Source of the DNA: a virus
Lineage: Duplodnaviria; Heunggongvirae; Uroviricota; Caudoviricetes
IMG/VR virus record: IMGVR_UViG_2913172373_000003
Span: 1-35,874 of that record
Reading direction: 5' to 3' (one strand)
DNA length: 35,874 bases
Part shown: positions 34,812 through 35,874 of the stretch, piece by piece
Layout of the letters: the number at the start of each line of letters is the position of its first letter
Position numbering within the stretch: position 1 is the first letter of the stretch
Program-made: the position numbers and the translations under genes
The notes under the pieces: model-generated
Seen by the model: the letters and a program-made list of their open reading frames with translations, nothing else
The model's database searches: none
Told to the model about the DNA's origin: nothing

Positions 34812-34838
34812 AACCCGTGTATATACGGGTTATTTTTC
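34812..34838. terminator. hairpin terminator between convergent genes
   Basis: AACCCGTGTATATACGGGTT palindrome followed by ATTTTTCTTT on the plus strand; overlaps the stop of the minus-strand membrane-protein gene. Confidence 0.6.
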
Positions 34839-35378
34839 TTTATCGCCATCTTTTCTTGATTTGAACAATCCACTAACAACGAAGCCAACCAAACCAACAA
34901 TGCTAATTGTACTTGTACCTAGTAATGCAACGATTGCTTCAACTGGAGGCTTTCCTTCATGAGCAATAAGAAACGATACAAACATTCCGGCTACAAATAA
35001 GCACCACCACGACATAAACCAAACCGTGAATGATGCCATTTTTGTCCGAAGTTCATTGTCTATTTCTTTACCTGTTGCGTCAGCTATCTTATCGCGTACT
35101 TGTGATTTGAGCATATCAAGCTGAGCTTGAAGACTGTCCATTCTGTGCTGCTGCATAAACTCATGCAATGCACCTGTATTAGAACCAAACTCTTCTGCCT
35201 CCAGAATAGCTTTATTTTCTGAAGAAGAATCATCATCGCTCTCATGATTAGACGGCTCAAATGCAGATTTAAAAACCTGTTCTTGACTGTCAGTATAGTT
35301 TAAGGATGCTTCAGAGCGACCATTTTCAACACCTGCAGCCGCTCCGATAAGTTTATAGATATCTGAATTGCGAGACAT
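34830..35378 (-). CDS. hypothetical two-TM membrane protein, candidate toxin/effector partner of the Panacea protein
   Basis: 182 aa ATG ORF with CAGGGA SD, 22 nt after the Panacea stop; acidic Ser/Asp-rich N-terminal half, coiled segment, two C-terminal hydrophobic helices (FTVWFMSWWCLFVAGMFVSFLIA; AIVALLGTSTISIVGLVGFVVSGLF); AT-rich. Confidence 0.6.
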   Translation of the reverse strand: MSRNSDIYKLIGAAAGVENGRSEASLNYTDSQEQVFKSAFEPSNHESDDDSSSENKAILEAEEFGSNTGALHEFMQQHRMDSLQAQLDMLKSQVRDKIADATGKEIDNELRTKMASFTVWFMSWWCLFVAGMFVSFLIAHEGKPPVEAIVALLGTSTISIVGLVGFVVSGLFKSRKDGDKEK

Positions 35379-35400
35379 GTCATCCCTGAATATTACTTTT

Positions 35401-35874
35401 TCAGAGGCCCTGACATTGCTGTCGGTTATTCAATAAATCATGATAATAAGTCTTGATCGCATCATCTGGGATGATTGACGAGCCAATACCATTATAAGTT
35501 TGTGACCAAGGCGTACCTGGCATATGAGTTAGAGTTGATAACTCAATTCCATTTTTCGAGCCGTAAAATTTATAAACAGCTCCTATAATGCTCTCTGCTT
35601 GCGGATCCATAGTAACAATGCCACCAAAAGGAGCTACTGCTACATTCGTAACAGGCTTATTCCCATAATCTTTGAAAGCATCGTACATTCCGGGAATAAC
35701 CGGACCGTACTTCCACGCAGAGACACATTCGTTGAGCAAAGGCTTACCTGTTAATGCTAAATAGTAACCATGGGCAATATAAGTAAGCTTCTGCAGTTGC
35801 ATGTGGGTCAGAGGATTATGATGTTGGTTTCCCAACGTTATGAATTTATTGGCTATTTGTACCGGGCTGTACAT
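35401..35874 (-). CDS. Panacea-domain (DUF4065) protein, putative antitoxin
   Basis: 157 aa; LQKLTYIAHGYYLALTGKPLLNECVSAWKYGPVIPGMYDAF is the hallmark Panacea/DUF4065 motif; ATG is the last 3 nt of the window, so its upstream context is unseen. Confidence 0.75.
   Translation of the reverse strand: MYSPVQIANKFITLGNQHHNPLTHMQLQKLTYIAHGYYLALTGKPLLNECVSAWKYGPVIPGMYDAFKDYGNKPVTNVAVAPFGGIVTMDPQAESIIGAVYKFYGSKNGIELSTLTHMPGTPWSQTYNGIGSSIIPDDAIKTYYHDLLNNRQQCQGL

Follow-up and report, generated by a model that had tools for sequence, protein, structure and literature searches.

The two genes at the right-hand end of the viral record IMGVR_UViG_2913172373_000003, analysed here over its whole 35,874-nt stretch (the window), are very probably an allele of the characterised Escherichia coli PanA-PanT type II toxin-antitoxin (TA) system, carried as cargo at the end nearest the attachment site (att) of a lambdoid prophage that integrates at dusA. 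The antitoxin gene panA (35401..35874, minus strand) starts at the right end of the window, which coincides with its ATG, and the toxin gene panT (34830..35378, minus strand) follows it. An earlier note on this DNA, made from the letters alone, had proposed a PanAT-like pair with a small membrane toxin as prophage cargo, and the existence of a near-identical, experimentally validated pair bears this out (PMC8832971). Its view that the membrane partner was novel and could not be placed in any family, however, does not hold, as this protein corresponds to PanT(Esc. col.), falls in toxin cluster T3, and is covered along its entire length by PHROG 13343. As a discovery the finding adds little: a 2022 paper had already described this pair, including the toxicity of PanT, its neutralisation by PanA, and how it acts on the membrane. 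What is new here is the dusA-att prophage context, a consensus promoter, a swappable cargo slot, and the association of homologues with a hotspot.

Nine PanAT pairs have been verified experimentally (Kurata et al., 2022, PNAS 119:e2102212119; PMC8832971). One of them, designated PanA Esc. col.-PanT Esc. col. and taken from E. coli STEC O31, consists of the antitoxin WP_000287252.1 and the toxin WP_000019185.1, with the mode of action given as "Membrane" (PMC8832971). Dataset S1 of that paper lists the pair with the antitoxin gene before the toxin gene, a gap of 22, toxin cluster T3, and the tag "NotPhage" (PMC8832971). The window's PanA shares 153/157 amino acids (97.5%) with WP_000287252.1, the differences being T126A, P136S, D137N, and T142A, while its PanT shares 175/182 (96.2%) with WP_000019185.1 and differs by R3H, Y28S, V35A, K37E, S47R, H78N, and W124C. 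The two pairs are alike in protein lengths (157 and 182 amino acids), gene order, 22-nt spacer, and genomic position; they differ by these four PanA and seven PanT substitutions and in the tag, the window pair being clearly prophage-borne. In RefSeq annotation, WP_000287252.1 occupies the Panacea-gene position in 10 matching E. coli loci (L004-L013), and in one of these (L013, strain STEC1588) it is adjoined by exactly WP_000019185.1; the 22-nt spacer of this validated pair has the same sequence as that of the window. Because of this near-identity to validated accessions and the identical spacer, the window pair is taken to be a natural allele of the published TA system, and at 97.5% and 96.2% identity the published depolarisation and large-pore mechanism, along with neutralisation by PanA, should therefore apply to it. 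The GenBank record of phage PhiR47_1 likewise annotates the two genes as "PanT toxin" and "PanA antitoxin"; the literature search found no paper describing this phage.

Expression of PanT(Esc. col.) is toxic and co-expression of PanA neutralises it, independently of ClpXP and Lon (PMC8832971). The toxin shuts off transcription, translation, and replication indiscriminately, and the authors took the disappearance of DiSC3(5) staining and the entry of SYTOX Green to mean that large inner-membrane pores form (PMC8832971). Pull-downs of PanAT complexes were made with five other pairs, not with the E. coli pair (PMC8832971).

PanA is a 157-amino-acid stand-alone Panacea (DUF4065/SocA-like) antitoxin. 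The Panacea/DUF4065 motif that had been noticed in the first gene is confirmed by Pfam PF13274 SocA_Panacea (66.2 bits against a cut-off of 25.7, E=6e-18, residues 27-123), and the protein also matches phrog_1281 (E=5e-48). The GPV signature of Panacea, reported to be critical for neutralisation (PMC8832971), is present as G57-P58-V59 inside WKYGPVIPG, and all four differences from WP_000287252.1 lie C-terminal of the residues matched by Pfam.

PanT, assigned to cluster T3 by its identity to WP_000019185.1, its match to phrog_13343 (E=5.6e-112), its hydropathy, and its AlphaFold2 (AF2) model, has the architecture expected of such a toxin. The earlier note had described an acidic N-terminal half, a coiled region, and two C-terminal transmembrane (TM) helices, and each of these was recovered by charge count, hydropathy, and modelled helices. 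Residues 1-75 contain 15 D/E against 5 K/R, with 12 Ser, and hydrophobic 19-mers (Kyte-Doolittle score > 1.6) fall at about 119-140 and 145-172; TM1 is placed at about 117-140 and TM2 at about 146-172. In the AF2 model a short helix (4-14) is followed by disorder (16-53), a long helix running into TM1 (53-139), a turn, and a second helix (146-177). The secondary structure so predicted for the 182-amino-acid protein agrees with the first description, at a mean predicted local distance difference test (pLDDT) score of 59. The acidic N-terminus, the two hydrophobic segments, and the helices at 53-139 and 146-177 match the T3 profile. T3 toxins are found in Bacteroidetes, Deinococcus, and Alpha-, Beta-, and Gammaproteobacteria (Kurata et al., 2022; PMC8832971, Dataset S1), and in T3 pairs the antitoxin gene always comes first and the Panacea protein has no N-terminal domain (PMC8832971). 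As far as sequence can tell, the window pair has all of the features of PanAT and of T3 systems. Pfam matches to PanT, namely DUF2207_C (17.8 bits, cut-off 33), DUF2975, and 7tm_6, were all below threshold and were rejected as compositional TM matches. Sequence searches of the PDB with both proteins gave nothing meaningful, the best values being E=0.53 and E=0.047, the latter to a lamin coiled coil.

A search among 5.8 billion proteins found 68 relatives of PanT, to about 40% identity near full length, the remoter ones aligning over the C-terminal half alone; PHROG 26171 matches over residues 80-176. Named relatives come from Klebsiella, Enterobacter, Salmonella, Providencia, Pantoea, Serratia, and Cronobacter. 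In the family alignment the N-terminal half is variable and acidic. There is an invariant juxtamembrane/TM1 block (G103-x-x-IDN-x-LR...A-x-x-T-x-x-FM-x-x-WC-x-FV), and TM2 is almost invariant and Gly-rich (ALLGTSTISIVGLVGFVVSGLFK). The partnership with Panacea is conserved as well: in eight loci encoding PanT homologues of 41-66% identity (from Enterobacter, Klebsiella, Salmonella, Providencia, Pantoea, Serratia, and E. coli), a Panacea gene (153-157 amino acids, SocA_Panacea) lies 21-45 nt upstream in every case. Among 12 loci (L001-L013), PanT varies much more than PanA, with 10 protein alleles against 2; the changes concentrate in the acidic N-terminal region (3-78) and in TM1 (120-134), residues 79-119 and 145-177 being invariant.

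Several points weigh against carrying the published mechanism over to the window. The published toxicity and neutralisation concern another allele, relative to which the window's carries seven PanT and four PanA substitutions, W124C in TM1 among them. The PanA:PanT complex of the E. coli pair rests on analogy, the pull-downs being of five other pairs. The AF2 model of PanT is weak (mean pLDDT 59, predicted template modelling score (pTM) 0.27, from a 36-sequence alignment), and the predicted panA promoter, described below, is a consensus match in relatives that lies outside the window. It might be argued from the same substitutions, and from the presence of the window's exact PanT sequence on just 6 contigs (recorded from Escherichia sp. 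E10V4), that the window allele has decayed and is passively carried, with a non-toxic PanT or a PanA that no longer neutralises. Both open reading frames (ORFs) are full length, however, the seven PanT differences are all in family columns that are not invariant, and residue 124 varies naturally (W, C, Y, F or L). The ratio of nonsynonymous to synonymous polymorphism (pN/pS) among 12 loci is 0.17 for panT and 0.05 for panA, indicating purifying selection on both, and the window's exact PanA sequence is present on 252 contigs. Decay is accordingly considered highly improbable, and a functional allele of the E. coli PanA-PanT system remains the strongly favoured reading.

The module has the layout of a two-gene TA-like operon. 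The two minus-strand ORFs are separated by a 22-nt spacer (35379..35400, minus strand; read directly as AAAAGTAATATTCAGGGATGAC) between the panA TGA and the panT ATG, and a modest Shine-Dalgarno (SD) sequence, AGGG, lies 5 nt ahead of the panT ATG, all as initially described. The module had also been called AT-rich relative to the neighbouring phage genes, and its GC content is 0.403, whereas the early-left operon has 0.471 and the window as a whole 0.509; just 2% of 1,045-nt windows have a GC content as low. A scan of Rfam gave no match to a structured or antisense RNA within the module, and an RNA component of either kind was rejected for it.

Since the window ends exactly on the panA ATG, the panA promoter must lie outside it, and the upstream region can be viewed only in relatives. 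The 200 nt upstream of panA are near-identical in 9 related loci, all of which have, about 150 nt before panA, a sequence that fits the sigma-70 promoter consensus perfectly (TTGACA-16 nt-TATAAT), as well as a strong SD (GAGGAGGG) ahead of the panA ATG. In one of these loci (L002) an in-frame TGA is found 18 codons 5' of the ATG, and the alternative that the Panacea ORF is the end of a larger, multidomain gene continuing upstream was rejected on this basis. Given the consensus promoter, expression of panAT in the lysogen is probably constitutive and independent of the prophage. The predicted promoter in L002 is flanked by a 16-nt direct repeat (GTTATAAACACAGTGA at 7673-7688 and GTCATAAACAGTGTGA at 7789-7804 of that locus, outside the window), and the leader of about 150 nt there has more ACAGTG/CACTGT motifs and an imperfect palindrome (CTGTGTATATGTACAG). 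These repeats and the palindrome may serve as operators or, close to att, as arm-type sites for the integrase.

On the opposite flank, panT faces the plus-strand genes at 29769-34796. Upstream of these is a gene for a cI-like repressor, and CII- and O-like genes are found on the opposite strand. The plus-strand genes comprise YfdQ/YfdR-like genes followed at the end by a Rv2179c-like 3'-5' exonuclease gene and an excisionase gene; because of this repressor/CII/O-like layout and the exonuclease/excisionase end, they are taken to be the early-left operon. The excisionase gene (34497..34796, plus strand), last in this operon, encodes a PrtN-type protein (PF11112, E=3.9e-23; phrog_1300 excisionase, E=6e-40), labelled "pyocin activator PrtN family protein" by RefSeq in all related loci. 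The operon and the panAT module are convergent, as had been stated, with a hairpin between them at 34808..34835 that overlaps the panT stop codon. Its 12-bp and 10-bp stems (dG of -14.4 and -12.7 kcal/mol) are each followed by a T-run and score as terminators on both strands, which is the behaviour of a bidirectional intrinsic terminator.

This convergent geometry, with a single 12-bp hairpin between the operons, allows the speculation that the pair serves the lytic cycle of the phage itself. On induction, antiterminated read-through from the early-left operon would run antisense over panT-panA and shift the balance between the two products, and PanT, which forms large inner-membrane pores, would supplement lysis in the manner of a holin. 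A lysis cassette is present at another place in the phage, however, the module is absent from most relatives with the same early-left genes, and antisense transcription would reduce both products; such a role is considered very unlikely.

Taken with the published data, the arrangement suggests how the system may work. In the lysogen, a sigma-70 promoter belonging to the module itself, placed by the near-identical loci just beyond the window, would drive the bicistronic panA-panT message. Because the antitoxin SD is strong and the toxin SD weaker, PanA would be made in excess. By analogy with the Bartonella model and with the pull-downs of other pairs, the stand-alone Panacea protein PanA may bind PanT directly and hold it inactive, the contact on PanT probably being the disordered stretch near its N-terminus and the helix ahead of TM1. 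Were PanA lost or inactivated, PanT would insert through its two C-terminal TM helices, the Gly-rich TM2 possibly mediating oligomerisation into a pore. The large pores would then depolarise and permeabilise the inner membrane and stop all macromolecular synthesis, as shown for WP_000019185.1. The pay-off may most likely lie in protection of the lysogen population through abortive infection or exclusion, in post-segregational stabilisation of the prophage, or in both.

The genomic setting of the pair bears on these possibilities. The window is a lambdoid prophage of the mEp460/PhiR40 kind. About 305 bp separate the panA ATG from an orphan dusA 5' fragment of 105 bp in each of the 7 related, near-identical loci whose flank is long enough, which substantiates the placement of the module at the prophage edge. 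Such a displaced 5' fragment is the signature of dusA-specific integration, and panAT is therefore the gene pair nearest to the attachment site. By megablast, the 1,575-bp region is found at 96-99.4% identity in phages phiSTEC1575-Stx2k, 1720a-02, and PhiR47_1, and in 78-79 of 5,426 complete E. coli genomes, each time as a single copy on the chromosome. The "NotPhage" tag of the STEC O31 pair is contradicted by these data, as all related loci examined end a dusA-integrated lambdoid prophage and three phage genomes carry the pair. The validated E. coli PanAT is thus att-end cargo of dusA-integrated lambdoid prophages, some of them Stx2-converting, and not a free chromosomal locus.

The slot between xis and att is not reserved for panAT. 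The adjacent exo/xis segment is present in 741 E. coli genomes against 79 with the module, and most relatives with the same early-left genes lack panAT. In the sister phage PhiR40_1, which is 97.7% identical over the structural genes, the same slot holds a different pair in the same orientation (L022, 3024-4014, minus strand), comprising a YafO_toxin-family gene (PF13957, E=1.9e-21) and a 179-amino-acid partner. This pair resembles panAT in its xis-att position, strand, and two-gene architecture, and differs in that its proteins are unrelated to PanA and PanT and have no Panacea domain. Members of the YafO family are ribosome-dependent mRNA interferases. The 179-amino-acid partner lies upstream of the YafO gene and has no Pfam match; its GenBank label, "YafM antitoxin", is unsupported by any Pfam or PADLOC match. 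Since a different TA-like pair occupies the slot in PhiR40_1 and the module is rarer than the exo/xis segment, the slot behaves as an exchangeable cargo position.

Many of the prophages that carry panAT look degraded. In E. coli MIN14 (L009, 169-1377) an IS1414 element separates the excisionase gene from panT, the early-left region of L007 and L008 is truncated, and L002 has pseudogenes. The panAT pair is intact in all of these carriers, which is compatible with selection for the module or with addiction to it. Prophage addiction would work through loss of the element, which ends PanA synthesis and leaves residual PanT to kill the cell. The retention of the module in these prophages fits this explanation, as do the antitoxin-first layout of a classical type II TA operon, the att-end position beside the excisionase gene, and the YafO TA in the same slot of the sister phage. 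Addiction requires, however, that PanA be less stable than PanT, and ClpXP and Lon are dispensable for neutralisation; moreover, a membrane toxin must be freshly made to insert, which weakens the post-segregational model. Addiction is rather unlikely as the role of the pair, though it comes second among the roles considered.

The role ranked first, held tentatively and at rather less than an even chance, is anti-phage abortive infection or exclusion. Infection would inactivate or deplete PanA, or the Panacea domain would sense the phage, freeing PanT to collapse the membrane before the invader's cycle is complete. Carriage as prophage cargo with its own consensus promoter, and the presence of another TA-like pair in the same slot of the sister phage, are consistent with this role. 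The PanT homologues point the same way, as 5 of the 8 homologue loci described above are flanked by gpA on one side and the portal gene on the other in P2-like prophages; one locus adjoins a type I-C retron reverse transcriptase (RT)-Toprim gene (PADLOC E=1.7e-212) and another a restriction-modification (R-M) methylase/specificity pair. This P2 gpA-portal (gpA-Q) hotspot is enriched in anti-phage systems (Rousset et al., 2022; PMC9122126). Panacea has been hypothesised to be a sensor (Ernits et al., 2023; PMC10440598), and membrane-depolarising TA or abortive-infection effectors are known in RexB and RosmerTA.

Other observations count against a defence role. The hotspot also houses non-defence cargo, such as partition systems and the cytolethal distending toxin (CDT), and hotspot placement concerns the homologues only, the window copy being in a different slot, between xis and att. 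Table S5A of Rousset et al. lists "DUF4065 + hypothetical" in the P2 hotspot, but outside the validated systems (PMC9122126). PADLOC v2 gave no match for PanT, and for PanA just E=0.021 to a type I restriction endonuclease (REase) model. No paper reporting a phage phenotype for PanAT was found in the literature search, and neither the NC-SV prophage small RNA (sRNA) paper nor the functional selection of Vassallo (2022) mentions Panacea, DUF4065, or dusA. Because no PADLOC model matched and the literature yielded no phage phenotype, the defence role of panAT is kept as a hypothesis, plausible from genomic association. In order of likelihood, abortive infection or exclusion is thus placed first, prophage addiction next, and a part in the phage's own lysis far behind, and these roles are not mutually exclusive.

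A more specific version of the defence role, in which panAT is a genuine abortive-infection or exclusion system whose Panacea domain senses a specific phage cue and releases the pore-forming PanT, is less likely than the general one and is offered as a doubtful but consequential idea. If true, a trigger would for the first time have been identified for the Panacea "sensor" hypothesis, and the xis-att slot of dusA lambdoid prophages would be a hotspot of interchangeable TA/defence modules, comparable to the P2 gpA-Q locus. The prophage context makes both the purpose of PanAT and phage sensing by Panacea directly testable with an E. coli lysogen and phage panels.

Two further regions of the window, away from panAT, deserve mention. 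A low-GC island (about 0.39) at 20700-21800 lies just downstream of the Q antiterminator gene (21787-22167, minus strand) and upstream of a DNA methylase gene (19579-20631, minus strand). It contains an opposite-strand ORF (21256-21702, plus strand) of 148 amino acids, which has no Pfam match and whose N-terminus (MNKMTVLLLSATIISGC) resembles a lipoprotein signal peptide with a lipobox; in the slot that stx occupies in Stx phages, it is a candidate for either a moron or a lipoprotein of surface exclusion. Elsewhere, two Rfam families scored above their gathering scores, C4 antisense RNA (80.7 bits) and the Hfq-binding sRNA isrK (61.2 bits). Their sites (27160-27247 and 27272-27348, both minus strand) lie side by side, in or beside ORF 26872-27708 (minus strand), which belongs to a phage transcriptional-regulator family.

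Among known systems, the founding Panacea/DUF4065 antitoxin is that of SocA-SocB in Caulobacter crescentus, and PanA shares its PF13274 domain. SocA is a ClpXP adaptor that brings about degradation of SocB, a toxin that blocks replication by binding the beta sliding clamp. A SocAB-type mechanism, with a DnaN-binding toxin and an antitoxin acting through ClpXP, was considered for panAT and rejected. In contrast to SocB, the window toxin is an unrelated membrane protein with two TM helices, and neutralisation by PanA needs neither ClpXP nor Lon (PMC8832971). A closer parallel is the PanA-PanT pair of Bartonella apis/choladocola (toxin cluster T12, NetFlax D11), which also has a stand-alone Panacea antitoxin and a pore-forming toxin with a charged N-terminal region and C-terminal TM helices. 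In that pair, Panacea is predicted, with support from mutagenesis, to contact the N-terminal unstructured region of the toxin and the helix preceding the TM segment (PMC10440598). The T12 toxin does not cluster with T3 by sequence, however, and homology between the two is only suspected by the authors (PMC8832971).

In their effect on the cell, lambda RexB, HokB, and the RosmerTA toxin are similar to PanT, each being a small inner-membrane protein whose activation collapses the membrane potential. Membrane-depolarising TA and abortive-infection effectors such as RexB are a well-known type. The labelling profile of HokB is comparable to that of PanT(Esc. col.) (PMC8832971), and RosmerTA, which comes from a Gordonia phage, combines depolarisation with antiphage activity (PMC10440598). 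PanT has no sequence relationship to RexB, HokB, or the Rosmer toxin (no Pfam or PADLOC match), and its control differs as well, being exerted by a Panacea-domain protein antitoxin rather than by an RNA antitoxin, as in Hok/Sok, or by a sensor such as RexA.

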